Source: a virus. Taken from it: a stretch of DNA of 64,000 nt. A program made the translations under genes and the position numbers. Within the stretch, counting starts at the first letter, position 1. Every line of letters starts with the position of its first letter. Positions 948 to 43,709 of this stretch are shown piece after piece. Under the pieces are notes generated by a model that saw only the letters and a list, made by a program, of their open reading frames with translations, was not told the DNA's origin and did no database searches. The DNA lies in IMG/VR virus record IMGVR_UViG_3300045988_126190, positions 5,268 to 69,267 of that record. The stretch is one strand, 5' to 3'.

Positions 948-1946
948 CTATCGCAGTTTTGCTACCATGTCGTCGCAGTAGCGGGAAATGTCGCACGGGT
1001 TGATGATCTGATATTTCTCGACGACCTTCTTGAAGTAGTCGTCAATCAGTTTCTTATCAATCGTGGCCGCGCTGCGGTCGTTTGGAAGCAAATTGCCTCG
1101 CGTTTCAATCCACGGGCGTTCGTTATGCGTAATTCGGCTCAGAACGCCGCCCGAATACATCCCGAATATATCTGCAACCGCGTTCATAAGGACGATTTCA
1201 CGCGTAGTAAACTCCGAAAAATCTTCGGCTTCTTCCATCGTCGGCATAGAAATCGGGTTCCATCCGCAGTCGCTGTACATCCGGTATATGTCGGGATAAA
1301 CAGGTCCATACGCCCACGCTTGGCAGTCGTCAGTGAAAAGGTCGGTACGGTACAATGCGCGGAAGAACGCCTGCGCAAAATACAGCAGTTTCTGGAGCAC
1401 CATAGGGGTAACTTCCTCGGCTCTGTGCAGCATATACCTTGCAACCAGCGCAATCTTGTCGCGACCGTACAGCACGGAAATCTTGTTTACCGCCGCCCTG
1501 CATTTTGCGTAGGCAACGGACGTGATACGGTCCTTGTTTTCCTCAAGGTACTTCCCCATCACGTCATGCGAGGACAGCACCTCCTTCAAGAGGTCAGAAT
1601 GCGCCTTTGACGGAAGCTGACCGCCGACGTAGCGGTTGATGGTCACATCGCCAAAACCCAGCAGTTTCGCAAGTGGGCCAGCGCCGATGTTGTATTTTTG
1701 GAGAATCTGTTCAATTTGCGCGACAGTGATCAGGTTGGCGGCTTTGCGGTATGCTTCATGTGCCGCAATAGCGTTTTCGTCGTTTACTTCAGCAACATAT
1801 GTTTCCTCGCCGCAAACAGTGCAGTAAGCAGTTCGTTCGACATAGCTAAATGTAATTCCGCGAACGGTCTGTTCGATTTTCCGCGACTTTACTTCATATT
1901 CTGTTTCAGCCCCGCAGTTGACACAAAAAGTATTCATATCGTTCAT
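948..1946 (-). CDS. antitoxin: MqsA-like zinc-ribbon/HTH fused to a Panacea (DUF4065) domain
   Basis: N-terminal CxxC...CxxC plus HTH. C-terminal LQKLLYFAQ...AWAYGPVYPDIY motif. ATG at 1946 has an AAGGGAG RBS and abuts the toxin stop. Confidence 0.75.
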   Translation of the reverse strand: MNDMNTFCVNCGAETEYEVKSRKIEQTVRGITFSYVERTAYCTVCGEETYVAEVNDENAIAAHEAYRKAANLITVAQIEQILQKYNIGAGPLAKLLGFGDVTINRYVGGQLPSKAHSDLLKEVLSSHDVMGKYLEENKDRITSVAYAKCRAAVNKISVLYGRDKIALVARYMLHRAEEVTPMVLQKLLYFAQAFFRALYRTDLFTDDCQAWAYGPVYPDIYRMYSDCGWNPISMPTMEEAEDFSEFTTREIVLMNAVADIFGMYSGGVLSRITHNERPWIETRGNLLPNDRSAATIDKKLIDDYFKKVVEKYQIINPCDISRYCDDMVAKLR

Positions 1947-1976
1947 AGAAGTTGCTCCCTTCACTTCACTTGGCAA

Positions 1977-2372
1977 TTATTGGTCATATTTCCCTTTTTC
2001 GTGAAATGAAATTACCATAACTATATCATACGCAGTACGCGTCTCGATATATAGTTTCAAGTACAGTTTTACTAATTCAGGTTCGCCAAAGTATAAAAGC
2101 TCGGCATCCTTGAAAAACTTGTAGACCTCGGCAGATATATCATATCGCGGGTTATCATTTGGAGAAATCTCGACGCAATCCTCTGCCGAAAGCATTTTCA
2201 AAATATCGCACTGTTCTTTGTGCGAAAGACGATACTTCTCTTGCAGTTCTTTATTTTTCCATCTTGGAATGACCTTGATGTCGCCGGTTGCCAGCAGCGG
2301 CTTCATCCTCTTAATGAATTCTTGCGCTTTTTTGTAATCGTCTGGCGAAAGTTCGGTACGGATAGGAATCAC
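1977..2372 (-). CDS. MqsR-like toxin
   Basis: C-terminal LYLKLYIE...DIVMVISFHEK resembles MqsR VYLKITVIHDVLIVSFKEK. Toxin-first gene order as in mqsRA. Confidence 0.6.
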   Translation of the reverse strand: MIPIRTELSPDDYKKAQEFIKRMKPLLATGDIKVIPRWKNKELQEKYRLSHKEQCDILKMLSAEDCVEISPNDNPRYDISAEVYKFFKDAELLYFGEPELVKLYLKLYIETRTAYDIVMVISFHEKGKYDQ

Positions 2373-2584: not shown

Positions 2585-2613
2585 TTGACATATGCCTAGG
2601 CGTATGTTATATT
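2585..2613 (+). promoter_or_regulatory. promoter of RHH cassette A
   Basis: TTGACA-17-TATATT with the palindrome GCCTAGGC in the spacer. Confidence 0.55.
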
Positions 2614-2645: not shown

Positions 2646-2834
2646 ATGCCGCCGAAAACAGGCCGTCCTATCGTTGGGACAGAGCCAAAAAACAAGCAAA
2701 TCGCACTCAGGGCAACCGAAACAACCGTCAGGAAATTTCAAGAATGTTCTGATGCCACGGGAAAAACCAAGACCGAATTGCTTGAAGAAATGGTGGATTC
2801 CCTGTACAAAGAGGTAACGGCTAAGAAAAAATAG
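2646..2834 (+). CDS. ribbon-helix-helix (Arc/CopG-like) regulator
   Basis: 62 aa with N-terminal GRP motif shared with the RHH genes at 3383 and 42509. GAGGTGAG RBS. Confidence 0.6.
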   Translation: MPPKTGRPIVGTEPKNKQIALRATETTVRKFQECSDATGKTKTELLEEMVDSLYKEVTAKKK

Positions 2835-2899
2835 ATGCAACCCGTCCACGACCAAATGACCGGATTGCATCTACCCAAACGACGGGGAAGCCCCATCTG
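2825..2899 (-). ncRNA. putative sar-like antisense RNA of cassette A
   Basis: Predicted from the antisense promoter at 2906-2934 and hairpin 2833-2872, which has a T-run only on the minus strand. Confidence 0.4.
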
Positions 2900-2905
2900 A
2901 AATCT

Positions 2906-2934
2906 ATTATACTCAGATAGGGCTTCCTTGTCAA
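2906..2934 (-). promoter_or_regulatory. antisense consensus promoter between RHH and ant
   Basis: Minus-strand TTGACA-17-TATAAT. Confidence 0.6.
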
Positions 2935-2958
2935 ACACTGTTTTGAAAGGGAGCTATT

Positions 2959-3378
2959 ATGAATAACGAAATCCAGATTTTCAATTACAACGACCATGAA
3001 GTCAGAACCGTTCAGAAAGATGGCGAACCGTGGTTTGTCTTAAAAGACGTTTGCGGAATCCTTTCCATTGGGAATGTAGCTGATGTTTACGCTCGCCTTG
3101 ACACCGATGAAAAGGGGGTCGGCCAAATCGACACCCTTGGCGGACGGCAAAACATGAGCATTATCAACGAATCCGGACTCTACAACGTCATTCTCCGTTC
3201 CGACAAGCCAGAAGCGAAGCCCTTTCGCAAGTGGGTCACGTCCGAAGTCCTTCTATCTATGGTTGAAATGCACAATTCTGGTGCTGTGATTTTGTACATT
3301 ATGCCGCAAAATATTTTCTTGACATTTTTGCGTTCCGGAAATATAATTGAATTATCGGAACACAGAAATGCGAGGTGA
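2959..3378 (+). pseudogene. truncated Bro-N antirepressor
   Basis: Bro-N motifs are intact up to KWVTSEVL, then the frame runs into the promoter of the next cassette. Lacks the C-terminal half present in the 42800 paralog. Confidence 0.65.
3319..3347 (+). promoter_or_regulatory. promoter of RHH cassette B
   Basis: TTGACA-17-TATAAT with the palindrome TTCCGGAA (3333-3340) in the spacer. Confidence 0.55.
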
Positions 3379-3382
3379 AATT

Positions 3383-3556
3383 ATGGCTCCGAAGGCTGGG
3401 AGACCGAAGTCGGAGAATCCGAAGGATGTTGATGTGAAGGTAAGATTTGACAAGGAGCTGAACGCAAAGCTACTGCAATACTGTCAAAAACACGACATCA
3501 CGAGAACAGAAGCAATCCGGCGCGGTGTTCATCTGCTTCTCTCCCAAGAAAAATAG
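3383..3556 (+). CDS. ribbon-helix-helix (Arc-like) regulator
   Basis: MAPKAGRP...VRFDKE...EAIRRGV is homologous to the 42509 product. GAGGTG RBS. Confidence 0.7.
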   Translation: MAPKAGRPKSENPKDVDVKVRFDKELNAKLLQYCQKHDITRTEAIRRGVHLLLSQEK

Positions 3557-3559
3557 AAT

Positions 3560-3630
3560 AAGACAATCGGCCTGCCGTAGGAAGCTAAAACCGATTGCCT
3601 TATTTCAACACAACTCCTGAAGGAATTGGT
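3560..3630 (-). ncRNA. putative sar-like antisense RNA of cassette B
   Basis: Antisense promoter at 3637-3665 plus a bidirectional hairpin (ACAATCGG/CCGATTG) with T-rich flanks. Confidence 0.4.
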
Positions 3631-3636
3631 AAATCT

Positions 3637-3665
3637 ATTCTATCATTCCTCTGGGGAAAAATCAA
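3637..3665 (-). promoter_or_regulatory. antisense promoter overlapping the ant RBS
   Basis: Minus-strand TTGATT-17-TAGAAT. Confidence 0.5.
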
Positions 3666-3674
3666 GGAGGAATT

Positions 3675-4443: not shown

Positions 4444-4620
4444 ATGTTTGAGGGCTACACCGAAAAACAGATCGTCGAGATGATTCGGGCGGCTTTGAAA
4501 TCGCCGGAGCGTCGCGCGGAGCTTATGCGCTTGTTGGATTCCCTAGGGCTTCTCCCACAGGAGGTGCCTGACAAATTGACACTCCCCACGGCTAAAGCAG
4601 GGGGATTCTCGGTTCGCTGA
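4444..4620 (+). CDS. small conserved cassette protein, 3' end replaced by IS sequence
   Basis: MFEGYTEKQIVEMIRAALKSPERRAELMRLLDSLGLLP is homologous to the 43568 and 25217 products. It diverges right after LGLLP, where the IS end begins. Confidence 0.55.
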   Translation: MFEGYTEKQIVEMIRAALKSPERRAELMRLLDSLGLLPQEVPDKLTLPTAKAGGFSVR

Positions 4621-4760
4621 CCGTAGCCTTCACCATGAGAGGTCTTACATGGTCTCCCCGAGCGTATCGGTTCGGGCGTGTCCCGCCCTACCATATATTC
4701 TATCTACGCCAGCAGGCGCAGACCTTCGTTGAGGATGTTCTTCGCGGCGTTGATGTCCCG
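4570..4760 (-). ncRNA. putative TnpB omega (re)RNA
   Basis: Position overlaps the tnpB 3' end and extends to the right end, as in characterised TnpB elements. Not folded in detail. Confidence 0.4.
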
Positions 4761-5822
4761 GCCGTGGACTGTACCGCAAACCGGGCAAAACCACTCCCGC
4801 ACAGAAAGGTCTTTCGTTCCGGGCCACTGAGCACCACATACAGAGCAAAGCTGGCTGGACGGAAAGAAGCGGTCTATCGTGACCACCTGTTTTCCATACC
4901 ACTTTGACTTGTATTCCAACTGCCGCCGGAACTCACCCCACGATGCATCAGAGATGGACTTGGCCAGCCTGTGGTTCTTGACCATGTTCTTGGGCGCCAA
5001 GTCCTCAATGCAGATCAGATCGTACTGGCGCATAAGGTCAGTGGACAACTTGTGGAGCATATCCTGTCGCTGGTTGGCGACGTGCTCATGCAGTCTTGCC
5101 AACTGAAGCCTTGCTTTCTCCCGGCGGCTGCTCCCCTTTGTTTTTCGGGAGAGTTGCCGTTGGAGTTTTGCAAGTTTCTTCTGGCTCTTGGATAGATACT
5201 TATGGTTCGGATACTCCACACCATCGGAGGTGATTGCAAATGCTTTCAGCCCCATGTCGATGCCGACCACCGCCCCTGTAGATGGCAGCGGCTCCATATC
5301 AACGTCTGTACAGCACAGGGCTACGAAGTATTTTCCGCTTGGGGTCTGGCTGACGGTTGCGGACAGAACACGCCCCTCTACAGGCTTGCTGATCCGGCAT
5401 TTTACCTTTCCCAGTTTGGGGAGCTGTACAGAGCCTTCCAATACTTTGATATTTGCGCCAACGCACTTGCTCTTATAGCTTTGTCGATGGTTTCGCTTGC
5501 TCTTGAACTTTGGGTATCCGGGTTTCCCGCCTTTTTTGACCCGCCGAAAGAAGTTCTGATAGGCTGTATCCAAATCCCGCAGAGAGGATTGCAGGGCGGT
5601 TGCATCAACTTCCCGCAGCCAGATGGTTTCCTCCTGTTTCTTCAGAGACGTCAGGTCTTTGTCTTGCGTGAATCGTGTGGGAGATTTTCCTGTTTCCCTG
5701 TATGCCTCTATTCGCTGTGCAAGATAGTGATTCCAAACAAAACGACAGCAGCCAAATGTCCGGTGTATCTGTTGCGCTTGTGCGATATTGGGATAGATGC
5801 GGAATTTGTAGCTATATTCCAT
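4704..5822 (-). CDS. tnpB: TnpB RNA-guided nuclease
   Basis: 372 aa with RuvC motifs GIDMG, IEDL, RDINAA and zinc finger CSVCG...CPVCG. Confidence 0.9.
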
Positions 5823-5831
5823 TTCGGAACC

Positions 5832-6242
5832 TCACACATTCTTCTGGCCTTCTATGTACTGCTTGATGACTAACAATGGCGCACCGCCAACAGTAGATAC
5901 AAAATACGAGTTAGTCCACAGCGATGGGAGCCGCGACTGAAGCCAGCTAAATTCTTGTCTCAGAATCCGAGAAGTACGCCCTTTTATTTGTTTTACGGCT
6001 TTGTGTATCCCGAATTGCGGGTCTACTTCCATAAGCAAATGCACATGATCTGGCATAATTTCCATCTCTATGACATCGATGTGGAGTTCATGACAAATTT
6101 CATCTATGAGTTCCTTCAAGCGGGCATTGACACCATCGACCAAGACCTTACGGCGGTATTTTGGACACCAGACCACATGGTACTTGCAAGAGTACACCAC
6201 GTTGTTGTTGTTCTTATATTTCATGGAATTATTATACCACAT
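5832..6242 (-). CDS. tnpA: IS200/IS605 Y1 (HUH) transposase
   Basis: YHVVWCPKYRR, DHVHLL and YFVSTVG motifs. The start may be the internal Met at 6224. Confidence 0.9.
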   Translation of the reverse strand: MWYNNSMKYKNNNNVVYSCKYHVVWCPKYRRKVLVDGVNARLKELIDEICHELHIDVIEMEIMPDHVHLLMEVDPQFGIHKAVKQIKGRTSRILRQEFSWLQSRLPSLWTNSYFVSTVGGAPLLVIKQYIEGQKNV

Positions 6243-6434: not shown

Positions 6435-7463
6435 TCAGACAGCGGTGGAAAGGCTCATGCGCTTTTCGTTTCTGAGCGCTTCTTTTGCCATTGCGGCGAG
6501 GACTTCCTTTGCGGAGTTCTGACCCCGGCGCTGCATCAGACGACCGCAATAGCGCTGCGTCGTGGTGATGGAGACGTGACCAAGCTCGGACTGGACAAAT
6601 TCCATGCTGGCACCGGCATTCAGGAGAAGTCGGCTGCCGATATGACGAAGGTCGTGCGTCCGGACACCGGGAACGCCGGTGACGGAATTGACGTGGCGCT
6701 CGACAACGGAGGACAGCCACTGACTGCTTCCCCGGTGCCACTGCGCTTCTCCGCTGGTGAAGGTGCCGAATTCATGCGCGGCGGTCGTGCCGAACAAAGG
6801 CGCGGTATCGGGAGCATCAGCCGGACGAATGCCGGAGGCCAGATAAAGCCGGACGGCGCTCTGGGCAAAGGGCGTGAACTGCACGCAGCGGTACTTGTTG
6901 CCCTTGCCGTGCTCGACGTTGATCTCACCGTTTTCAAAGTCGAGATCGCAGAGACGAAGGTCGAGCAATTCCGAATTTCTGATCTGACTCGTCAGTAGAA
7001 TTGCCGTGATGGCGTAATTTCGCGGCCACATCGCTCTCATTTGCGACGCGGGGCATTCGTTGACGACCAGACGGGAAAGTTTCGTGTCGGGCAAAATAAT
7101 GTCATACGGACGGCTCTCCGTTTTCGGATAAAACTCCGGCTCGACCGGATTAACGGGGTATTGAAGCTCCCGGCCGAACAGAGGCTTACGAAAAGCAGAG
7201 AAGAAGTACGACAGCTCGTTGAGGTACTGCTTAACGGTCGTGGCCTTTTTGCCGCCGTTAAGCATGGCATCACGCCAAGAAAGAATCACGGAATAATCCG
7301 GGTCGGTTTCCGGCTCTGCGCTCTCGCAGTTGGAAATCCAGTAGCTCCGGAACAGCGTAAGCCGCGTTGCATAGTTGCGCAACGTCTTTTCCGATGTGTT
7401 CTTCATTCTCAAGTTCTGAAGGTAGGCTGACGTCGCCGCGTCAAACTTCTCTAGCGCTGTCAT
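6435..7463 (-). CDS. tyrosine recombinase (XerC/D-like phage integrase family)
   Basis: C-terminal THDLRH...LGHVSITTTQRY catalytic motifs. GGGAGG RBS before the ATG at 7463. Confidence 0.85.
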   Translation of the reverse strand: MTALEKFDAATSAYLQNLRMKNTSEKTLRNYATRLTLFRSYWISNCESAEPETDPDYSVILSWRDAMLNGGKKATTVKQYLNELSYFFSAFRKPLFGRELQYPVNPVEPEFYPKTESRPYDIILPDTKLSRLVVNECPASQMRAMWPRNYAITAILLTSQIRNSELLDLRLCDLDFENGEINVEHGKGNKYRCVQFTPFAQSAVRLYLASGIRPADAPDTAPLFGTTAAHEFGTFTSGEAQWHRGSSQWLSSVVERHVNSVTGVPGVRTHDLRHIGSRLLLNAGASMEFVQSELGHVSITTTQRYCGRLMQRRGQNSAKEVLAAMAKEALRNEKRMSLSTAV

Positions 7464-7523
7464 AGCTTCTTCCTCCCTGCTTTTTTGTTGTAGCACGCTT
7501 TGTTTCCTCGTGTCTACAGTTGC

Positions 7524-7552
7524 ATTATATCAGTTGCTAGCAACATTGTCAA
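7524..7552 (-). promoter_or_regulatory. consensus promoter with palindromic operator GTTGCTAGCAAC
   Basis: Minus-strand TTGACA-17-TATAAT. The operator at 7533-7544 also occurs in the promoter at 60358. Confidence 0.6.
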
Positions 7553-7582: not shown

Positions 7583-8296
7583 TCAGACGAGTTTTCGGAT
7601 GGCATCAACAGCCTTTCGGGTGTAGCGGAAGGTCTGGACCTCCTTGTTGCTGTAGGGGCTTTTATCAAAGAACCACTTGCCGTATTCGGCGGTTTTGAGT
7701 CCGTTCTGGTTGGCGATTTTTCCGACGCGGTTTGCGGTGATACCGAGTGCGGCGGCAATTTCGGCGGCGGAATAGTAGCGATCGATCTTGCATTCCGGCA
7801 GCGGGATGACCTCCTTGCCTCCGGATAGAACGGAGCTGGCGTAGCTGCTGCACACCTGCTTATATTCCGGTGTTGCGAGGTTGCCGATCTCAAGCCACAG
7901 GGCGGCAACATTGGCGCGGCTGTTGTTCAGGTCAATCTCAAGCCGCTGCTTCTGCAAGGGGTCGGCTGTGTAGGAGCCGGTTTTCCGAATGGACGGAAGA
8001 ACCTCGGACGTGACCCAGCGTTTGAATTTCTTCGCAGTGGGCAGTTTGGAGCCGATAATGAGGGCGTAGAGGCCGGATTCGTTGATGATGGTTTGATTCG
8101 GATTGCCTTTTCCGTCGCGAATCGCGACGGTATTCCGGTCATCGTCATCTACGTGCTTAGCGATGGCATCTCTGGGGTTGCTGTAGCCCAGAATGTCCGC
8201 TACATCCTTTCCGACGAACCACGGTTCGCCGTTGATTGTGGTGGTTCGGACTTGGCCGAACTCGTCGTTCTTAAAGATTTGGATTTCTTTGCTCAT
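7583..8296 (-). CDS. Bro-N domain protein with C-terminal DNA-binding-like region
   Basis: IQIFKNDEFGQVRT, PWFVGKDV, RWVTSEVLPSIRK. Confidence 0.8.
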   Translation of the reverse strand: MSKEIQIFKNDEFGQVRTTTINGEPWFVGKDVADILGYSNPRDAIAKHVDDDDRNTVAIRDGKGNPNQTIINESGLYALIIGSKLPTAKKFKRWVTSEVLPSIRKTGSYTADPLQKQRLEIDLNNSRANVAALWLEIGNLATPEYKQVCSSYASSVLSGGKEVIPLPECKIDRYYSAAEIAAALGITANRVGKIANQNGLKTAEYGKWFFDKSPYSNKEVQTFRYTRKAVDAIRKLV

Positions 8297-21609: not shown

Positions 21610-22736
21610 TGCGCTACTCCGTCCTGTTTGCCGAGAAAGCGGTTGATGAAGTAGCACTGGCCTTTCCCGGTGACGACCGTCGTCTTTGTGATGACGTTGC
21701 AGCCATTGGAATTGAGGTGGCAGCTCTCCTTTACCTCGAACAAGCCCATTTCCATAGCTCTCTGCGTAGGCATATTCCGGTTGTCACCGCGCTTGACAAG
21801 GAAGCCGTTCTGCCGGAGCCATTCAAACAAGCGGTTCTGACCGATGTTGATTCCGTTCTGCTTCAGCAGCTTTGCCAGAGCGCCGATGAGGATGGTCGTT
21901 TTGCTGGCCGATACGGCATTGGAAAAGAGGACGTGCGGCTTTTGCTCCTCGACGGTGGCCTCCAGCGCCTTGCGCTTGTCCTGCTCGGCTTTCAGCTCGG
22001 TCAAAAGCCGGATGCCGAAGTCCGGGGTCAGCACCATCTTTTCGAGCGTTTCGGGCGTCATATACGCGCCGTGCTTGCGAATAGAAGGGATAACCTCGTC
22101 GGCAATGAACGCCTGAAATTTTTCTGCCGCCTCGTTTTTCGCCTTCATCGCCAGCCGGTAAAACACATTTTCTGGGATGTAGCCGTCGCGCCCACAAGTG
22201 GGCACGCCCATTTCGCTCAAATAACCTTCGACGCGCGTCCAGCGAACAACCTCGTTGCCACTTGTGGCAACGGTTGTGAACCCAAGTCCTCTGGCGACAT
22301 TTTCCAGTTTGAGATATGCTGTCCCGTCCTTCTCGTAACAAGCCACGCCGCCGATGATAGTAATTGGGGTTTCCATGACGCATCGTGCGGTTTGCTGCGC
22401 AATATCAGTAGCCCCGTCTTTTTCATGCTTGCGGATGGAGGGTAAGACCTCGGACGTGACCCACCGCTTGAATTTCTTGGCTGTCGGGAGTTTGGAACTG
22501 AGGACGAGAGAATAGAGACCGGATTCATTGATAAGAGCTATAGCCGTCCCGTTGACGGTGAACGATTCGTTCACCGTCCGATCATCCTCGTCGATGTGAT
22601 CGCGAATCGCCTTCTGCGGATTAGAATATCCGAGAATGACAGCAACGTCTTTGCCGACGAACCACGGCTCATTGTTGATTTCTACGGTTCGGATTTCACC
22701 GAACTCAGGATTGTTAAATACTTGAATATCGTTCAT
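21606..22736 (-). CDS. antirepressor (Bro-N + KilAC/ANT-like domains)
   Basis: IQVFNNPEFGEIRT, RWVTSEVLPSIRKHE, and a second ...IPSIRKHGAYMTPE block. Confidence 0.85.
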   Translation of the reverse strand: MNDIQVFNNPEFGEIRTVEINNEPWFVGKDVAVILGYSNPQKAIRDHIDEDDRTVNESFTVNGTAIALINESGLYSLVLSSKLPTAKKFKRWVTSEVLPSIRKHEKDGATDIAQQTARCVMETPITIIGGVACYEKDGTAYLKLENVARGLGFTTVATSGNEVVRWTRVEGYLSEMGVPTCGRDGYIPENVFYRLAMKAKNEAAEKFQAFIADEVIPSIRKHGAYMTPETLEKMVLTPDFGIRLLTELKAEQDKRKALEATVEEQKPHVLFSNAVSASKTTILIGALAKLLKQNGINIGQNRLFEWLRQNGFLVKRGDNRNMPTQRAMEMGLFEVKESCHLNSNGCNVITKTTVVTGKGQCYFINRFLGKQDGVAQ

Positions 22737-29942: not shown

Positions 29943-30740
29943 TTAAAGCGCTTCGCGGGTTCTGAAGTATTCCGCACAGGCGGCCGTATAAGCGGACCGT
30001 TGCAGCTCGCTGAAATGCGCGGCGGCAAACAGCTTTTCGCGGTTTTCGTAGTCCTTCACGCTGTCCACATTCGCAAAGCAGGAAATAACATCATAGTCGG
30101 CTTGCCAGTTGATGCCGTATTCGTGATTATCCATTTCATAAAGGAAGGCGGATTTCCAATAGTCGAAGTTGTCCGCGTTGGCGTTGGCGGCGGCTTCGAT
30201 TCCCTGCCGAAGCTGTGCGCATTTCTTCACAAAATCGCGATCAGTATAATATGCGAAACAGACAGGACTTAGAACCATGGTTTTAATTTTCTGAGTATAT
30301 GCGGCCTCCTCTGCGTCATTGTGGAAGATCTGGAAGCAGGAAACACGCTTGCGCCGCATTCCGTAATAGTTTTGCAGATAGTAGCGGCGGCGGTCAATCT
30401 CGTCCGGGTCTGACGTCGGCGCTACAAGCTCGGCCTCCGTGAATAAAATGCGGTTAAGTTTCGCAACATACAGCGCGCGCAGCTCTTCGCGGCCCTTGCC
30501 TTTGTGGTGCAATTCATAATCATTCGCATAGTAAATATGCTGACCGTCTGCGAAAACGAGAGCGGAAAAACCGAAGTAGCCACCGAAGTCGATAAAATAG
30601 ACCTGATGCCCCTTGATTTCTTCCATTTCTTCCGCAAACGCTGCCGCGCCGGACTCCGTCAGCGCTTCAATATCGCGGATGTCGTATTCACTGAAATTTT
30701 TGCCGTTGTAATACTTGATTTCCTTCTGAATCTGTGCCAT
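29943..30740 (-). CDS. hypothetical protein (265 aa)
   Basis: Long ORF with an RBS. No motif recognised. Confidence 0.65.
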   Translation of the reverse strand: MAQIQKEIKYYNGKNFSEYDIRDIEALTESGAAAFAEEMEEIKGHQVYFIDFGGYFGFSALVFADGQHIYYANDYELHHKGKGREELRALYVAKLNRILFTEAELVAPTSDPDEIDRRRYYLQNYYGMRRKRVSCFQIFHNDAEEAAYTQKIKTMVLSPVCFAYYTDRDFVKKCAQLRQGIEAAANANADNFDYWKSAFLYEMDNHEYGINWQADYDVISCFANVDSVKDYENREKLFAAAHFSELQRSAYTAACAEYFRTREAL

Positions 30741-30838
30741 AATAATAATACCTCCATAATAATATTGATTTTCAATGTTGTTGTGAGTTGGGGCACGATG
30801 CGCGGCCTATCTTGCCGGACTGTCCGCGCATCGTGTTT

Positions 30839-31021
30839 TTATTTGTTGTTGTTGTCCTGAATTAACCTTTTAATTGCGCCGGTTGCAGATAGGCCGGAAG
30901 CCTTCAGCGCTTCGATTTTTGCGATCAGCTCGGCATCTTCGATCTTTCGCAGCTTTAACATATATTGCGAGTAGGTTTTTGTTTCGTATCGCCGTTTTGC
31001 TTCGTTGCTAACTTTTCCCAT
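30839..31021 (-). CDS. ribbon-helix-helix protein
   Basis: MGKVSNEAKRRYETKTYSQYMLKLRK... AGGGGTGA RBS. Confidence 0.55.
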   Translation of the reverse strand: MGKVSNEAKRRYETKTYSQYMLKLRKIEDAELIAKIEALKASGLSATGAIKRLIQDNNNK

Positions 31022-31032
31022 GAAATCACCCC

Positions 31033-31060
31033 TTGACATTCTGTTTTGATGTGGTATAAT
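31033..31060 (+). promoter_or_regulatory. promoter of antisense sRNA
   Basis: TTGACA-16-TGgTATAAT (extended -10). Confidence 0.55.
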
Positions 31061-31066
31061 ATTCCC

Positions 31067-31175
31067 GAAGGGTAAGCAAGGGGCGGCGACCGCTGCAACG
31101 GTCACGGCCCACCCCCCATTAAGTAGGAATTTGTGGAAGTGGCCGCGCCTTTGCTAGGGTGCGGTTATTTCTTTG
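31067..31175 (+). ncRNA. candidate type I antitoxin sRNA
   Basis: Carries CACCCCCCATTAAGTAG, complementary (16/17) to the toxin RBS region. Ends in hairpin CCGCGCC/GGTGCGG plus a T-run and overlaps the toxin 3' end. Confidence 0.45.
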
Positions 31176-31245
31176 CTATTGCGATAACTCCGAAGATAAC
31201 AACGGATAACAGATTCAAAAGCGCAATGACTTCTAATACTGTCAT
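31165..31245 (-). CDS. 26-aa hydrophobic Hol-Tox-like type I toxin
   Basis: Own translation: MTVLEVIALLNLLSVVIFGVIAIAKK. GGGGGGTGA RBS. Confidence 0.6.
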   Translation of the reverse strand: MTVLEVIALLNLLSVVIFGVIAIAKK

Positions 31246-31308: not shown

Positions 31309-31337
31309 ATTGTACCATACAATAACGTATTTGTCAA
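31309..31337 (-). promoter_or_regulatory. toxin promoter
   Basis: Minus-strand TTGACA-17-TACAAT. Confidence 0.5.
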
Positions 31338-37867: not shown

Positions 37868-39685
37868 ATGCCGCGCAAGGGAACCGTCTGGACGGCGGGG
37901 GCCGGTTGGGTGCGGTCGCAGGAGTACGAGGCAGCACAGTATGACAGTCTCGGTGACGGATGGGGCTTTCTGATCTCCTTTTGGCGCTGGTTCCCGGATA
38001 TGCTTTGTGACCTTTCTCGCAGTGACGAAGCAGACTATGAGCTGGCGCTATTACAGCGTGTATTCATGCGAGCCAAGGCACGGTATCAATACTGCGACAT
38101 CACCGCCTGCCGTGGCGCGACCAAATCGTTCTGTTCCATTCTGGAAGAGGCCTGCGAGGGTCTGTTGTGGCCGGGCATTACGACGGCATATTTCGGGCCG
38201 TCCCTGCGGCAGACCGCAAAGATCGGCGCAGACACATGGGAAACCATTCAGGAAAACTATCCGGCGCTGGCCGCACACTATAACGTCGAGGTCAAGGGCG
38301 GCGACCGCTTTAAGATCACGACGGGATACGGAAGCAGCTTTTCCATTGACGCATTTCGCGGCGCAAACCTGTGTAAGGTCGTGGCCGAGGAATATGCGCA
38401 GGAGGAGGCACCCCCGTTTGACATTGAAGATTATAAGCGCGTCGTGCTGCCCGCAGTTCGTATTGAGTACCGCGTAAAGGGCAAGCGCGACCCGACCTAT
38501 GTCAGATTTAAGCAGCACTCCATTACCTCCGCATCGCGGCGGCAGAACCACGCCTATGAAACACGGTGCCGCCACATTCGGATGATGGCGAGAGGCGAAA
38601 GCGCCTTTGTAATGGACGTTTCCTATGAGGTAATCCTGCTGATGCAGATGCGCCCCGTGATGTGGGCAGAAACGCTCAAGAGCGAGCTTAGCCCCGACGA
38701 ATGGGCGCGAGAGATGGAGAGCCTTTACACCGGCAGCGACAAGAATCCGGTCGTTCGCGACAGCGTTCTGACGGAATCGCGGTGTATGCTGCTGATGGAG
38801 GAGCATCACTGCTGCAAGGACCACGCGAACAAGGTCAAGCCGGAGGATGTGAAATACATCATCGGCTATGACGTTTCTTATGCAGACGGCGCGATCAACG
38901 CAAAATGCGCCTGTGCTGTAATCAAACTGACGAAGCAAACCAATTGGCTCAAGCGAGATCGATATCTGAAGCAGGTCGTCTGGCTGTCCGGTTGGGAGCC
39001 GGAGGAGCCGAGGGCGCAGGCGGCACGGCTGAAAACCATTTGGAACCGCTACTGCTTTGAGGGCAGCGAGACCTACATTGCCATCGACGCATGGCAGTAC
39101 GGCACCGCCGTGTTGCAGGCACTGATGGGCGACTTGGAGGACGGGCTGCCTCCCTTGTGCAGCCACGACCATTCCTTCTGCCCGGAGCTGGAGCGTGACG
39201 GCGCGATTCCGGTCGTGTTCCCCGTAAAGGCGGGCGGCGTCGGCGTGACTGACCCCGACAGCGAAATGCTGCGCTATGCCGAGGTGCAGTTTGAAAACCG
39301 CAACGTACAGCTTTTGACCTCGAACTGGGGCGAGGGCTTAGATGCCTATAAGACCTATCACCGCATCAAGGACGACGAGTTAGACCACCTGATCTACGCT
39401 CCGTACAAGGAAACGAACGTCCTGATTGGGCAGATGCAGAACCTGAGGAAGGTTCCTTCCGGCGCAGGGATGGCAGAGAAGCGAATCTCGTCCCATATCC
39501 AGCGCGACGACTGGTCCGCACTGAAATATGCCCTGCGCGTGGCGCAGAAACTGGAAACGAAATATCTGCTCAAGACCTATCAGAAGTCGGCGTGGGACGC
39601 GGAATACCAGAAGGGTTCCAGTTTCTACGCATCCGGCGGCGGCGTCCGCACGGTGGGACGGTTTGCAGGAAGGAAATACACATGA
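37868..39685 (+). CDS. terL: terminase large subunit
   Basis: 605 aa. Size, position and ATPase/nuclease-like layout fit. Confidence 0.8.
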   Translation: MPRKGTVWTAGAGWVRSQEYEAAQYDSLGDGWGFLISFWRWFPDMLCDLSRSDEADYELALLQRVFMRAKARYQYCDITACRGATKSFCSILEEACEGLLWPGITTAYFGPSLRQTAKIGADTWETIQENYPALAAHYNVEVKGGDRFKITTGYGSSFSIDAFRGANLCKVVAEEYAQEEAPPFDIEDYKRVVLPAVRIEYRVKGKRDPTYVRFKQHSITSASRRQNHAYETRCRHIRMMARGESAFVMDVSYEVILLMQMRPVMWAETLKSELSPDEWAREMESLYTGSDKNPVVRDSVLTESRCMLLMEEHHCCKDHANKVKPEDVKYIIGYDVSYADGAINAKCACAVIKLTKQTNWLKRDRYLKQVVWLSGWEPEEPRAQAARLKTIWNRYCFEGSETYIAIDAWQYGTAVLQALMGDLEDGLPPLCSHDHSFCPELERDGAIPVVFPVKAGGVGVTDPDSEMLRYAEVQFENRNVQLLTSNWGEGLDAYKTYHRIKDDELDHLIYAPYKETNVLIGQMQNLRKVPSGAGMAEKRISSHIQRDDWSALKYALRVAQKLETKYLLKTYQKSAWDAEYQKGSSFYASGGGVRTVGRFAGRKYT

Positions 39686-40044
39686 TGAAAAGCACGGACA
39701 AATATGGGCTTTACGTCGTGAGGCCAGAGGACATCGGCGAAAACGAGAAATATTATCTGATTACGGCGACGTACTGCCTGCTATACACCAAGAAAAAGCC
39801 GAAGGACGGGTTTCCCGTGAAAAACCTGACGGCGCTGCCGTCGCTGGCGAAGCAGTGGTTAAACGGGGCCATTGAGAGCCTACGGCAGGAATATTTGATG
39901 GAGAATCAGCAACAGCTTTTGGCCAAGGGCAAGGCGTTCAGCGACGCGCTTCGGCAGGAGCTTGAGGCTGAGAGAATCCGCATCAAGGAAAGCGAGATGA
40001 CAAAGGACGATGCAGCAACAGCAGAAGAAACCAAGAGCGAATAA
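39682..40044 (+). CDS. hypothetical protein
   Basis: ATGATG overlap with the terL stop. Confidence 0.55.
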   Translation: MMKSTDKYGLYVVRPEDIGENEKYYLITATYCLLYTKKKPKDGFPVKNLTALPSLAKQWLNGAIESLRQEYLMENQQQLLAKGKAFSDALRQELEAERIRIKESEMTKDDAATAEETKSE

Positions 40045-41806
40045 TGCGTCGTCGTATGCCACCTACGACCAGTATTTCGGAGCGCTGCGGCAGTTAGCCT
40101 CCGAATACGGCGACGTACCGAGCGACGGTTTTTGGAGCGCGTGGACACGGGCTTCGATGTCAACGAATCCCTTTATCAACAACAGCCGCGTCAAGCATAT
40201 CTCCTCCTTCCCTGCCGACGTTACCAAGCCACAGATTGTGGAAATGCTCAAGGCACCGGAGGACAACGAGCAGGCGCTTCGCGAAACGGCGGCGGGCTTG
40301 GAATGGGGTGCCTTCCCCTTCCGGAAAATCCGCATGACCTATCAAGGGGTCAACACCTACCACTATTACCACTACCCCGCGAACCTCACAAAGGAGGACG
40401 CGAAATCCGATACGCTGCGGCGCGAGGGTGTGCTGCTGGACAAGTTCAACCGGCGCTTTCAGCCGGACGCGCTGGCGCACCAAATCGTCGGGCAGGCGTG
40501 GCAGATGGGCAAGGTCGCCTATTATCCGCGCTATTCGCTGGATAAGCCGCACAATCGGGTGAATTTCGCGTTTGCACAGCAGATTCCCTCGGACTGGATC
40601 AAAATCGTCGGCTTTAACTCCGAGAGCAAATACACGGTCATGTTTAACATGATGTACCTGTTGCAGCCGGGGTCTGACTGGCGGCAGTTCGGCGATTTGC
40701 TTGCGCCGTATCTGGACGATTTTGACAGCGTGCTCGACCCCTTCGGGACGACAGGCAAACCGGACGGTTTGGGGAAAAAGTTCGTCTACGCCTCAAAAAA
40801 CACGGTGCAGAGCGCAGACGGCAGAGCCTTCCGCATCCAGCCGGACAAATTAAAGGCGAACGCAGCGGGAAATCCGCAGATATACAACCAAAACGGGCAG
40901 TGGGCGTATTACGTCACCCTCCCTGTGGAGGACGTTTGGGTGTTCGAGATCGACGACACGACGAGAGCCGTTGCGCCGATGAGCACGGGACTGTTCATCA
41001 GTTTTGACCAGATTTCCCAAATTGAGGACGTGGCGCTTGCCGTGATGCAGAATCCGCTTGTGTCGATTGCGTTCGGCGAGATGCCGTACTACGCAGAGCG
41101 CAAGACGGAAACCAGCGACCCCATTAAGCTTTCCCCGACCGGACGCGCCTACTACGTGGAGCTGTGGAATCAGATGATTGCGGCGGCAAATGCGGGCGGC
41201 ATTGCGTTCTTCCCCGCACCGATGGAAAAGCTCCATTTGGAAACGCTGCCGGAGGCGACCGGCTCAAGCGACATGACCTCGAAAAACTACGCCTACGCCG
41301 TGATGAAATCCGGCATGAGCGGTCTTATCCCCATTAACAGCGACCCGAGAGCCGGTGCGGTGGAGATCAGCGCGAAGCTGGAGGAGGCGGTTTGCTTCTG
41401 CATCTACCGCCAGATGGAACGGATGATGGAATCCGTTTACCGCAGAATGGGCCTGCGGTACGAATGGCGGTTTACCATGTTCGGCGGCTTCGTTTCGGAC
41501 AAGGCCGACCTCGAAAACGCACGAAAGGGCTTGCAGATCGGAATGCTCTCCGAAACGCTCAAGTACCTTGCGCTGCGCGGGATGAGTCTGTGGGACGATA
41601 TGAGCGTGTCGCACTTCATCAATGAGAGCGGCGTGCTTGACCTGAGAATCCCACCTATCACGAGCTACACGGCGACGCAGGGCGAAAGCGGCTTGCCGCC
41701 GAAGGCTCCGAAAGACCCGGACAACGAGGGCGGCAGACCGACAAAGGACATTGACGCGGCGCTGGAAAGCGGCTCTGAGGCGCAGGAAAGCGATTTGGAC
41801 GGGTGA
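40010..41806 (+). CDS. portal protein
   Basis: 598 aa, downstream of terL. Confidence 0.7.
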   Translation: MQQQQKKPRANNASSYATYDQYFGALRQLASEYGDVPSDGFWSAWTRASMSTNPFINNSRVKHISSFPADVTKPQIVEMLKAPEDNEQALRETAAGLEWGAFPFRKIRMTYQGVNTYHYYHYPANLTKEDAKSDTLRREGVLLDKFNRRFQPDALAHQIVGQAWQMGKVAYYPRYSLDKPHNRVNFAFAQQIPSDWIKIVGFNSESKYTVMFNMMYLLQPGSDWRQFGDLLAPYLDDFDSVLDPFGTTGKPDGLGKKFVYASKNTVQSADGRAFRIQPDKLKANAAGNPQIYNQNGQWAYYVTLPVEDVWVFEIDDTTRAVAPMSTGLFISFDQISQIEDVALAVMQNPLVSIAFGEMPYYAERKTETSDPIKLSPTGRAYYVELWNQMIAAANAGGIAFFPAPMEKLHLETLPEATGSSDMTSKNYAYAVMKSGMSGLIPINSDPRAGAVEISAKLEEAVCFCIYRQMERMMESVYRRMGLRYEWRFTMFGGFVSDKADLENARKGLQIGMLSETLKYLALRGMSLWDDMSVSHFINESGVLDLRIPPITSYTATQGESGLPPKAPKDPDNEGGRPTKDIDAALESGSEAQESDLDG

Positions 41807-42444: not shown

Positions 42445-42472
42445 TTGACTTTTGGCGGACATAAGTTATAAT
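42445..42472 (+). promoter_or_regulatory. promoter of RHH cassette C
   Basis: TTGACT-16-TATAAT with the inverted repeat CATAAGT/ACTTATG flanking the -10 box. Confidence 0.55.
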
Positions 42473-42508: not shown

Positions 42509-42679
42509 TTGTCGCCAAGAACCGGCAGACCAACAGAAAACCCGAAGCAAGAGCGCATTACCGTCCGATTGGACAAGGAATCCGCTGAAATCCTGCACCT
42601 GTACTGCGAGAAAAAGAACGTAGACAGAGCAGAGGCGATTCGCCGAGGGGTTAAGAAGTTGGCAGACGAAATAAAATAG
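42509..42679 (+). CDS. ribbon-helix-helix (Arc-like) regulator (56 aa, not in track)
   Basis: TTG start after GGAGGTGAGG. Own translation: SPRTGRPTENPK...VRLDKE...EAIRRGVKKL. Confidence 0.6.
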   Translation: MSPRTGRPTENPKQERITVRLDKESAEILHLYCEKKNVDRAEAIRRGVKKLADEIK

Positions 42680-42740
42680 AGTGTTGGCTGCCTCTCACAA
42701 CAAACCAACACCCTATCAGACAGGACAGGGAAACCTATCC
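42672..42740 (-). ncRNA. putative sar-like antisense RNA of cassette C
   Basis: Antisense promoter at 42747-42775 plus hairpin GTGTTGG/CCAACAC with a T-run on the minus strand. Confidence 0.4.
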
Positions 42741-42746
42741 GAAATC

Positions 42747-42775
42747 ATTATACATCGGAGCGGCTTCCTTGTCAA
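42747..42775 (-). promoter_or_regulatory. antisense consensus promoter
   Basis: Minus-strand TTGACA-17-TATAAT. Confidence 0.6.
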
Positions 42776-42799
42776 ACATTGTTTTGAAAAGGAGCTATT

Positions 42800-43567: not shown

Positions 43568-43693
43568 ATGTTTGAGGGCTATTCGTTAGAGGAAATCACC
43601 GATATGATTCGGCACACGCTGAAAGACCCGGAACGGCGAGAAAGGCTGCTCGGCCTTTTGGAAGAGCTGGGGCTTTTGCCGAGGAATTCATAA
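43568..43693 (+). CDS. small conserved cassette protein (41 aa)
   Basis: MFEGYSLEEITDMIRHTLKDPERRERLLGLLEELGLLPRNS. Confidence 0.55.
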   Translation: MFEGYSLEEITDMIRHTLKDPERRERLLGLLEELGLLPRNS

Positions 43694-43709
43694 ACTACAT
43701 AGTGCAATG

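Follow-up and report, generated by a model that had tools for sequence, protein, structure and literature searches.

Putative countertranscripts and a predicted leader switch in three RHH-antirepressor cassettes of a viral DNA stretch and in a widespread family of relatives

The 64,000-nucleotide stretch of viral DNA analyzed here (positions 5,268 to 69,267 of IMG/VR virus record IMGVR_UViG_3300045988_126190; hereafter the window) contains three cassettes, which we named A, B and C, in each of which a small gene encoding a ribbon-helix-helix (RHH) repressor precedes an antirepressor gene (ant). The elements of a cassette follow each other in the same order on the sense strand: a promoter (P_rhh), the RHH gene, a hairpin (H1), a short spacer, a second hairpin (H2), and the Shine-Dalgarno (SD) sequence and start of the next gene, which we refer to as the payload. 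P_rhh is near consensus in each cassette and its -10 box is flanked by cassette-specific repeats. The RHH genes finish in A-rich codons, and their stop codons lie inside the base of H1. The loop of H2 contains the sequence ATTATA, which is the -10 box of a promoter on the opposite strand; the -35 box of this antisense promoter is located 17 bp away, just 3' of the H2 stem. The positions of all these features are given in Table 1. A first-pass annotation of the window had assigned the flanking genes to RHH proteins and antirepressors, and the matches to PHROG 876, which is annotated as "transcriptional repressor", to Pfam RHH_1 and to the Bro-N and KilAC domains agree with these assignments.

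The same annotation had pointed out a minus-strand promoter in all three ant leaders, and we recovered these promoters with the sequences and coordinates it had given. Those of cassettes A (2934..2906) and C (42775..42747) are 12/12 matches to TTGACA-17-TATAAT, and that of cassette B (3665..3637) is TTGATT-17-TAGAAT (9/12) with a TG extension. Perfect 12/12 promoter matches with a spacing of 16-18 nt were found five times in the 64 kb of the window (53.5% GC) when both strands were searched; the five include the antisense sites of cassettes A and C and the sense promoter of cassette B. By our own arithmetic, which assumes a uniform base composition, about 0.02 perfect matches are expected by chance, a number far exceeded by those observed.

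To find relatives, the payload proved a poor guide. Most homologues retrieved in a search with the Ant proteins have other upstream regions, and tblastn with the RHH proteins of the window placed an RHH gene beside 16 of 160 Ant-anchored loci; many Ant homologues are preceded by other regulators or by a sense-strand terminator. Where an RHH homologue is present, the same anatomy is found 3' of the RHH gene, even if the next gene is not ant. Because an RHH gene lies beside only these 16 Ant loci and many Ant homologues stand behind other regulators, we conclude that the module tracks RHH and not Ant. The RHH alignment had no conserved stretch of 7-10 columns, so loci were retrieved with a single RHH protein, and these were far more numerous than those obtained through Ant. 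Clustering of the regions 3' of RHH genes from Clostridia genomes and viral contigs resulted in 148 non-redundant elements. No match to cassette C was obtained by blastn in the phage collection.

In these 148 regions the antisense promoter matches at least 9/12 positions in 128 elements, at least 10/12 in 103 and all 12 in 32, compared with 33, 13 and 1, respectively, for the sense strand of the same regions; moreover, some of the sense-strand matches are visibly the P_rhh of the next tandem cassette. The -10 box starts 55-78 nt past the RHH stop codon in 121 of the 128 elements and the spacer is 17 nt long in 112 of them. TTGAAA, TTGACA and TTGATT are the commonest -35 boxes, and TATAAT and TAGAAT the commonest -10 boxes. 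Because both hexamers of the cassette B promoter recur in relatives (TTGATT in 13, TAGAAT in 23), TTGATT-17-TAGAAT is a recurrent variant within the family and not a degenerate site. When the elements were aligned on the -10 box, the two hexamers stood out as the main peaks of information, the only other one being a short A-rich motif by the -10 box, and the stems in between vary freely. A TGn extension is present in 49 of 52 elements with a non-consensus -10 box versus 33 of 69 with a consensus one (Fisher p=1.7e-8), and it accompanies every TAGAAT. Compensation of weak -10 boxes by TG is expected of a working promoter, and not of an RNA loop motif.

A P_rhh-type promoter is present in 139 of 145 family members, and in 105 of these 139 a word of at least 7 nt is repeated across the -10 box. 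The 8-mers of the RHH operator recur in the intergenic region of their own cassette in only 3 of 83 cases. As an intergenic region thus hardly ever contains the operator words of its own cassette, the antisense promoter is probably constitutive and outside the control of RHH. The same numbers bear on a reading in which the inverted repeats are sites for the repressor on the DNA, the -10 and -35 boxes are incidental or form an RNA loop motif, and there is no antisense RNA. In favour of this reading, the -10 box is at the centre of a long, near-perfect palindrome (H2), and repeated sites are what RHH proteins bind. However, the P_rhh operator words are found again in the intergenic region in just those 3 of 83 cassettes, TG extensions compensate weak -10 boxes, and the spacing is fixed at 17 bp. 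For lack of operator words in the intergenic region, H2 was rejected as an RHH operator.

H1 and the U-tract that follows it were analyzed in 121 elements. The H1 stems contain 1365 Watson-Crick pairs; in addition, 97 G.U pairs are valid on the antisense strand only (they are A.C on the sense strand), versus 5 that are valid on the sense strand only (binomial p=3e-23). The mean folding free energy is -18.9 kcal/mol for the antisense strand versus -12.8 kcal/mol for the sense strand, and the antisense fold is the more stable one in 120 of the 121 elements. A U-tract, scored as at least 6 U in the 9 nt past the stem, is present on the antisense strand in 112 elements and on the sense strand in none (0/121); consequently, H1 was rejected as a sense-strand terminator between RHH and ant. 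In most elements the RHH stop codon is no more than about 2 nt from the base of the H1 stem. In cassette A, the A-rich last codons of the RHH gene encode the U-tract of the antisense terminator (2824-2831). The first-pass annotation had the minus-strand promoters aim at a hairpin with a T-run, and this was borne out: in all three cassettes a U-tract follows H1 on the minus strand only.

An RNA that starts about 7 nt after the -10 box and ends in the U-tract opposite the RHH gene would have a median length of 72 nt (interquartile range 67-75). The predictions are about 75 nt for cassette A, 84 nt for B and 72 nt for C, close to the 70 nt anticipated earlier. It had also been proposed that the RNA covers the 3' end of RHH and the intercistronic region without reaching the ant ribosome-binding site, and the predicted RNAs do end short of the SD sequences. 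For each of the three, the predicted fold consists of a small stem-loop at the 5' end and the terminator hairpin. The strand asymmetry of H1 and its U-tract is, in our view, the strongest single argument for a discrete antisense RNA that has a role, and we consider it very likely that these cassettes contain a gene for such an RNA.

The antisense promoter faces P_rhh at a distance of about 320 bp, and collision or occlusion might diminish read-through into ant, with the RNA itself having no function. Both promoters are convergent and near consensus, and in phage P22 the promoters Pant and Psar are likewise convergent and influence each other. We nevertheless regard transcriptional interference as an improbable explanation. 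A by-product RNA needs no terminator selected on the antisense strand (wobble pairs 97 versus 5; U-tract in 112/121), and neither does it need a conserved length of about 72 nt, a 5' stem-loop or a terminator loop resembling a U-turn. Moreover, antisense transcription halts before the RHH gene, which leaves a collision zone of only about 75 bp. As to the terminator loop, a recurrent motif (CUUUGGUCGG or YUUGGUAGG) is in most cases part of the antisense RNA; occasionally the sense RNA has it instead, as UUUGGCGA. The motif includes a YUNR-type sequence; YUNR motifs are presented, in the passages of PMC4485353 devoted to them, as general enhancers of the pairing between antisense RNA and target that can be located on either partner.

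For one probable relative a small RNA has been detected. Le Rhun et al. 2016 sequenced the small RNAs of Streptococcus pyogenes SF370 and reported Spy_sRNA800369, encoded in prophage 370.3 on the minus strand, antisense to the 3' untranslated region of the hypothetical gene SPy_0978 (PMC4829319). It has a predicted promoter and terminator, was smaller than 150 nt on a Northern blot, was judged to be a primary transcript, and with a coverage of 878 is at the top of their Table 2; outside SF370 the authors found it only in strain Alab49 (PMC4829319). In the same study another small RNA, at genome coordinate 779,816, lies between int3 and the next gene (PMC4829319). The integrase gene of prophage Javan489 is located at 1-1140, and the offset derived from it places coordinate 800,369 at about 21.7-21.9 kb, that is, at or no more than about 0.2 kb from the intergenic region downstream of the Javan489 RHH gene (21,661-21,788). 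Our RHH search returned the same match in the S. pyogenes prophages of M1_GAS (Javan489) and Alab49 (Javan446). The covariance model R1 described below scores the Javan489 locus, which is outside its seed, at 70 bits. Judging by coordinates and strain distribution, Spy_sRNA800369 is probably a member of the RHH-countertranscript family, and this probable relative is the only one for which a small antisense RNA has been shown experimentally. That a small RNA has been seen in S. pyogenes on the right strand and at the right position also argues against the reading without antisense RNA. Spy_sRNA800369 was only catalogued in PMC4829319, where the mechanism on its target, the link to RHH and antirepressor genes and the family are not described.

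H2 averages 13 Watson-Crick pairs, and its wobble pairs are biased in the other direction, with 147 valid on the sense strand versus 79 on the antisense strand (p=7e-6). Such strand-asymmetric wobbles (97 versus 5 in H1, the opposite bias in H2) are a signature of RNA, and together with the points given above they make repeats acting only as DNA operators very improbable. From a plain MAFFT alignment, RNAalifold retrieved no more of the structure than the base of H1. We therefore turned to individual folds, which voted the structure of a covariance model, R1, built from 33 leaders. R1 gave 121 matches in 97 of the 100 sources searched, all on the RHH strand except for one weak match in the window (30842..30738). 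Window cassettes A, C and B, all three of which are in the seed, scored 89.5, 76.7 and 41.9 bits, and named phages outside the seed scored 35-87 bits. In the alignment, which was fitted to the R1 structure, 33 of the 35 modelled pairs are changed on both sides, and 78% of cells are paired compared with 40-45% when partners are slid by 1-3 columns; the observed covariation score was reached by none of 500 shuffles. Thus, H1 and H2 covary. The features of the R1 family are all present in the window: a stop codon in the antisense terminator, a -10 box in the H2 loop, a -35 box 17 bp from it, and an SD sequence within about 30 nt.

The weak match in the window (32.7 bits), the fourth there, lies 3' of a 59-aa RHH-like open reading frame (ORF; MGKVSNEAKRRYETKTYSQYMLKLRK...) in the region 30738-31021 (minus strand). 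The ORF has a hairpin at its stop codon with a T-run on the opposite strand only, followed by an SD sequence and the ATG of a 265-aa ORF (30740-29943). No clear antisense -10/-35 pair was found in this leader (30738-31021). Possibly, this locus is a degenerate version of the module or a divergent cousin.

Pyrimidines predominate in the 3' arm of H2 (CTTCC, CCTCT or CTTCT). Together with the segment that follows it, which is the complement of the -35 box, this arm is complementary to the SD region, with which it can form an alternative hairpin, H3. In cassette A, the 5' arm of H2 is the predicted target of the small RNA (sRNA), the antisense -10 box is in the loop and the 3' arm is the pyrimidine-rich anti-SD; when the sRNA target is occupied, the 3' arm and the -35 region are predicted to pair with the ant SD AGGGAG (2948-2953). 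In cassette C, H3 covers the SD AGGAG (42790-42794). Constrained folds and sRNA/leader cofolds place H3 over the SD in all three cassettes, and in A and C this is the case only with the sRNA target blocked. Cassette B has a short H2 (AGGAAT 3621-3626 with ATTCCT 3645-3650), which is why its H3 (ATTCCTC...GAGGAAT, 3645-3673, over the SD AGGAGG 3665-3670) is predicted by RNAfold in both states.

The switch was analyzed in 82 elements with a clear SD by blocking the nucleotides complementary to the sRNA; in the controls the leader sequence from the H2 3' arm to the SD was shuffled. The mean probability that the SD is unpaired fell from 0.32 (median 0.28) in the free leaders to 0.09 (median 0.009) in the blocked ones, with a drop in 80 of the 82 elements, and in the shuffled controls blocking moved it from 0.35 to 0.40. 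The 8 nt before the payload start contain 4.9 T on average and at least 5 T in 53 of the 82 elements, compared with a mean of 2.1 before the RHH start. Given this T-rich tract after it, H3 resembles in many relatives an intrinsic terminator just before the start codon. The promoter, the terminator specific for the antisense strand, the covariation of H1 and H2 and the alternative pairing of H2 and H3 are all results of computation.

From them we infer a switch from H2 to H3 that is driven by an RNA and represses the payload, with the following course. An autorepressed P_rhh would transcribe the RHH gene and then the payload gene, which is an antirepressor gene in the window. A strong and probably constitutive convergent promoter in the leader would make a countertranscript of about 72 nt, which would start in the H2 loop, cross the 5' arm of H2 and the spacer, and stop at H1. 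In the free mRNA, H2 would keep the anti-SD segment in its 3' arm. Pairing of the countertranscript with the complement of H1, the spacer and the 5' arm of H2, to all of which it is a perfect complement, would release the 3' arm, and this arm and the -35-complement segment would then fold onto the payload SD as H3, so that translation is blocked. In the approximately two thirds of relatives with a U-rich tract after H3, H3 may also terminate transcription before the start codon. The payload would thus be under two layers of control, the countertranscript and RHH autorepression, and a brief pulse of antirepressor would be expected when the DNA enters a naive cell, with tight silence in an established lysogen.

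The perfect complementarity also suggests another way in which the sRNA could act, namely that RNase III cuts the approximately 70-bp sRNA:mRNA duplex, after which the severed payload cistron decays from its 5' end, RHH is kept, and H3 is secondary. In its favour, the sRNA would pair without mismatch over about 72-84 nt of the leader (cofold energies of -156 to -174 kcal/mol), and this duplex is located exactly at the cistron boundary; furthermore, some relatives have an SD that is predicted to be closed whether or not the sRNA is present. In S. pyogenes, antisense pairs are processed by RNase III, although these involve other antisense RNAs, and Spy_sRNA800369 is not among the RNase III- or RNase Y-dependent ones listed (PMC4829319). 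RNase III cleavage would leave unexplained the conservation of an anti-SD in the 3' arm of H2 and the finding that blocking the target closes the SD in 80 of 82 elements but not in shuffled controls. We find it plausible and compatible with the H2/H3 switch, as the two are not mutually exclusive, but unlikely to be the principal mechanism.

Several points weigh against the countertranscript-driven switch. The RNAs of the window are predicted from the DNA, and the probable link to Spy_sRNA800369 comes from coordinates and strain distribution. The -35 box also pairs inside H3, which partly confounds its conservation. H2 has many mismatches and a modest strand bias, and the pair counts given above are those of an alignment fitted to the model. 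The SD is not especially open in the free state, its value of 0.32 being like that of the shuffled controls, and in some members of the family, among them L175 and window cassette B, it is predicted by RNAfold to be sequestered with or without the sRNA. As the SD is not open in the free state, the ON state may be kinetic or co-transcriptional, or the sRNA may act otherwise. Finally, the window cassettes have 2-3 T in the 8-nt stretch before the payload, and the U-tract after H3 is weak (UAUUAUG), which makes attenuation doubtful there and translational sequestration the likelier effect. Taking both sides together, we favour silencing of the payload by a countertranscript-driven change from H2 to H3, with moderate confidence in the mechanism as a whole.

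Table 1. Positions of the cassette features in the window.
Feature	Position	Strand	Basis or remark
Cassette A sense promoter P_rhh, TTGACA-17-TATATT, TG-extended	2585..2613	+	CTAGGCG repeats flank -10, putative RHH operator
Cassette A RHH repressor gene, 62 aa	2646..2834	+	PHROG 876, E=2.6e-10
Cassette A hairpin H1, antisense intrinsic terminator over RHH stop	2832..2873	-	predicted fold
Predicted antisense RNA A, ~75 nt (5' stem-loop, linker, terminator hairpin, U-tail)	2825..2899	-	ends inferred
Cassette A hairpin H2, sense leader	2881..2932	+	predicted fold, family covariation
Cassette A antisense promoter, TTGACA-17-TATAAT	2906..2934 (-35 2934..2929, -10 2911..2906)	-	promoter scan
Cassette A alternative hairpin H3	2921..2955	+	constrained fold and cofold
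Cassette A payload, truncated antirepressor, Bro-N only, 139 aa	2959..3378	+	Pfam Bro-N 4e-25, PHROG 130
Cassette B sense promoter P_rhh, TTGACA-17-TATAAT	3319..3347	+	GTTCCG/CGGAAC inverted repeat
Cassette B RHH repressor gene, 57 aa	3383..3556	+	PHROG 876, 6e-16
Predicted antisense RNA B, ~84 nt, terminator hairpin H1 3556-3605	3547..3630	-	fold
Cassette B antisense promoter, TTGATT-17-TAGAAT, TG extension	3637..3665	-	promoter scan
Cassette B leader switch	3621..3673	+	folds; covariance model match 41.9 bits
Cassette B payload, antirepressor, Bro-N and KilAC ANT, 251 aa	3675..4430	+	family matches
Cassette C sense promoter P_rhh, TTGACT-16-TATAAT	42445..42472	+	CATAAGT/ACTTATG inverted repeat
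Cassette C RHH repressor gene, TTG start, 56 aa	42509..42679	+	Pfam RHH_1 4e-5; PHROG 876 2e-15
Predicted antisense RNA C, ~72 nt, terminator hairpin H1 42677-42716	42669..42740	-	fold
Cassette C antisense promoter, TTGACA-17-TATAAT	42747..42775	-	promoter scan
Cassette C leader switch, H2 ~42728-42768, alternative H3 ~42764-42794	42728..42794	+	folds; covariance model match 76.7 bits
Cassette C payload, antirepressor, Bro-N and KilAC ANT, 250 aa	42800..43552	+	family matches

The operators and the sRNA and target sequences differ among cassettes A, B and C, and from the -10 box to the ATG cassettes A and C are 91% identical; the cassettes are modular and apparently orthogonal. The antirepressor of cassette A breaks off after Bro-N exactly where the promoter of cassette B starts, so that A and B are fused in tandem. 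The antirepressor protein of cassette C was also found on human-gut metagenome contigs. Genes resembling those of a terminase large subunit (37868-39685) and a portal protein (40010-41806), both on the plus strand, are located just 5' of cassette C. In P22-like phages the immI region is an "ant moron" in the late operon (PMC2629481; PMC13397905), and by analogy cassette C would be a moron-like insert beside the packaging genes.

Other genes surround the tandem cassettes. A small ORF (4444-4620) follows the antirepressor gene of cassette B, and its C-terminus is unlike that of its counterpart in cassette C (43569-43694). Directly after it lies an insertion with IS200/IS605-type tnpB (4704-5822) and tnpA (5832-6242) genes on the minus strand, assigned by eye from their translations. 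5' of cassette A, in the region 948-2372 (minus strand), a 342-aa ORF with MqsA-like and SocA/Panacea antitoxin domains (PHROG 10390) is preceded by a 131-aa ORF (PHROG 34059); the two may be a toxin-antitoxin or defence pair. Another antirepressor gene (7583-8296, minus strand, PHROG 130) adjoins a tyrosine integrase gene (6435-7496, minus strand), with a perfect TTGACA-17-TATAAT promoter between the two (7552..7524, minus strand). Within the window no RHH gene or R1 element was found upstream of this antirepressor gene. Finally, a 26-aa hydrophobic ORF (MTVLEVIALLNLLSVVIFGVIAIAKK; 31165-31245, minus strand) has its own promoter, TTGACA-17-TACAAT, at 31337 (minus strand), and a transcript from a perfect TTGACA-16-TATAAT promoter (31033-31060, plus strand) would enter its 3' end from the opposite direction, a layout reminiscent of a type I toxin-antitoxin pair whose antisense RNA is convergent.

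The module is widely distributed. At least 539 stretches in IMG/VR (539 among the first 600 candidates) and at least 188 in GTDB representative genomes (188 among the first 600 candidates) encode an RHH relative, and the GTDB hosts among the matches listed are nearly all Clostridia (Oscillospiraceae, Lachnospiraceae, Ruminococcus, Lawsonibacter, Flintibacter, Pseudoflavonifractor). It is present in Clostridioides difficile phage phiCD211, where a gene annotated as "transcriptional repressor" precedes one annotated as "anti-repressor", in Fusobacterium phage phiFN37, and in the Streptococcus prophages Javan489 (S. pyogenes M1_GAS) and Javan119 (S. dysgalactiae), with the gene order RHH, small ORF, "putative antirepressor". 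The antirepressor gene is the second one after the module in a number of named phages, and several streptococcal relatives share the late-operon placement of immI in P22-like phages, for example behind a hyaluronidase gene. The module is not specific for ant: the gene directly 3' of it is very diverse in relatives, often a small ORF with the antirepressor one gene later, and among 112 elements these first genes form 61 sequence clusters with a median product of 75 aa. Tandem arrays are frequent, with up to 4 model matches in one 1.5 kb locus (L260) and 121 matches in 97 sources overall. In the plasmid collection PLSDB the RHH homologues belong to phage-plasmids or are larger, partition-linked CopG proteins that do not lie beside rep genes, for which reason we rejected the idea that the same module drives plasmid rep genes.

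The cassettes of the window are three instances of a widespread and so far uncharacterised family, and more than 120 independent relatives support the earlier proposal of an antisense promoter, an RNA of about 70 nt, an analogy to arc-sar-ant and no overlap with the ribosome-binding site. Literature searches revealed no RHH/antisense/antirepressor module described in Firmicutes phages, apart from the catalogued S. pyogenes antisense RNA. We tentatively put forward, at somewhat less than even confidence, that phages of Clostridia, streptococci and fusobacteria contain a large undescribed family of orthogonal "pulse generators", each with its own RHH operator and a hypervariable countertranscript/target specificity, that occur in tandem and serve diverse payloads. 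The incompatibility logic of plasmids (kissing U-turn loops and an SD-sequestering hairpin) would have been co-opted for anti-immunity and immunity, and competition between phages would drive the diversification.

Antirepressors decide whether a resident prophage stays silent, and the module is a compact, very common and sequence-predictable candidate for how this is controlled in phages of Gram-positive bacteria and gut anaerobes. It would mean that the logic of P22 immI arose again or persisted in Firmicutes with the RNA mechanics of plasmid copy control. If the identity of Spy_sRNA800369 is correct, at least one orphan antisense RNA of S. pyogenes is offered a function and a target. Cassettes of a repressor and an sRNA that are naturally orthogonal could also serve as genetic parts, and R1 could seed an Rfam family, as the module is absent from Rfam.

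The likeness to the immI region of P22, which had been proposed in the first-pass annotation, holds in its logic: one operon contains a small gene for an RHH repressor with an antirepressor gene behind it, and a convergent promoter, located within the intercistronic region or close to it, gives rise to a short antisense RNA that acts negatively on Ant. The likeness does not extend to the RNA itself, as no sequence or structural relation to sar was detected and pairing with the ribosome-binding site is absent. In P22, sar reportedly pairs with the ribosome-binding site of ant, whereas the RNAs of the window (2825-2899, 3547-3630, 42669-42740) end 5' of the SD sequences, with the -35 box in between. 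No counterpart of mnt, that is, no divergent small repressor gene, was found upstream of cassettes A, B and C, and an RHH profile searched against the PDB retrieved SvtR-like 2kel, ParG and RelB but not Arc or Mnt. Further differences are that the hosts are Firmicutes and that the payload in relatives is often not Ant, although those of the window are antirepressors as in P22.

Plasmid pMV158 encodes the RHH protein CopG, with the antisense RNAII encoded in the copG-repB intergenic region, as set out in the pMV158 passages of PMC4485353. According to these passages, RNAII is complementary to a target immediately 5' of the repB initiation signals and inhibits translation, and it is 48 nt long, with an unstructured 17-nt 5' tail and a rho-independent terminator hairpin with a U-tail (PMC4485353). 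The cassettes likewise have an intergenic antisense gene whose target is just 5' of the translation signals of the downstream gene, an RNA with a 5' segment and a terminator, and Gram-positive hosts. The cassettes have the gene order of RHH and payload and a promoter in front of them, with cassette-specific repeats flanking the -10 box in 105 of 139 relatives; the operator and RHH autorepression are putative. They differ in that the cassette RNA is about 72 nt long with a 5' stem-loop, in that the payloads are antirepressors or small phage ORFs and not a replication initiator, and in the proposed switch of the H2/H3 type, none being described for pMV158 in the same passages (PMC4485353).

The predicted RNAs also resemble the countertranscripts of plasmid pT181 (Rfam RF00242) and RNAIII of pIP501, which are two-hairpin antisense RNAs of about 70-90 nt whose terminator has a large loop, and they share the loop motif AACUUUGGUC(G)G with the RF00242 consensus. 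In the leader of pT181, as in that proposed for the cassettes, a middle segment can pair either with the sRNA target or with a segment downstream, and sRNA binding permits a hairpin just 5' of the start codon. The pT181 system is not known to include a repressor protein. In the cassettes, by contrast, H3 also holds the SD, the payload is not Rep, and the U-tract is weak in the window. A search of the whole window with Rfam at gathering scores gave no match. RF00242 matched relatives L144 and L322 on the antisense strand over the full model length with 34.4 and 31.3 bits, and these belong to one subtype only; as these scores are below the gathering threshold of 56 bits, membership in ctRNA_pT181 (RF00242) was rejected. 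Taken together, the module appears to follow the logic of P22 arc-sar-ant, and its mechanics seem closer to those of the pT181 countertranscripts and of pMV158 CopG/RNAII, which is the closest circuit.

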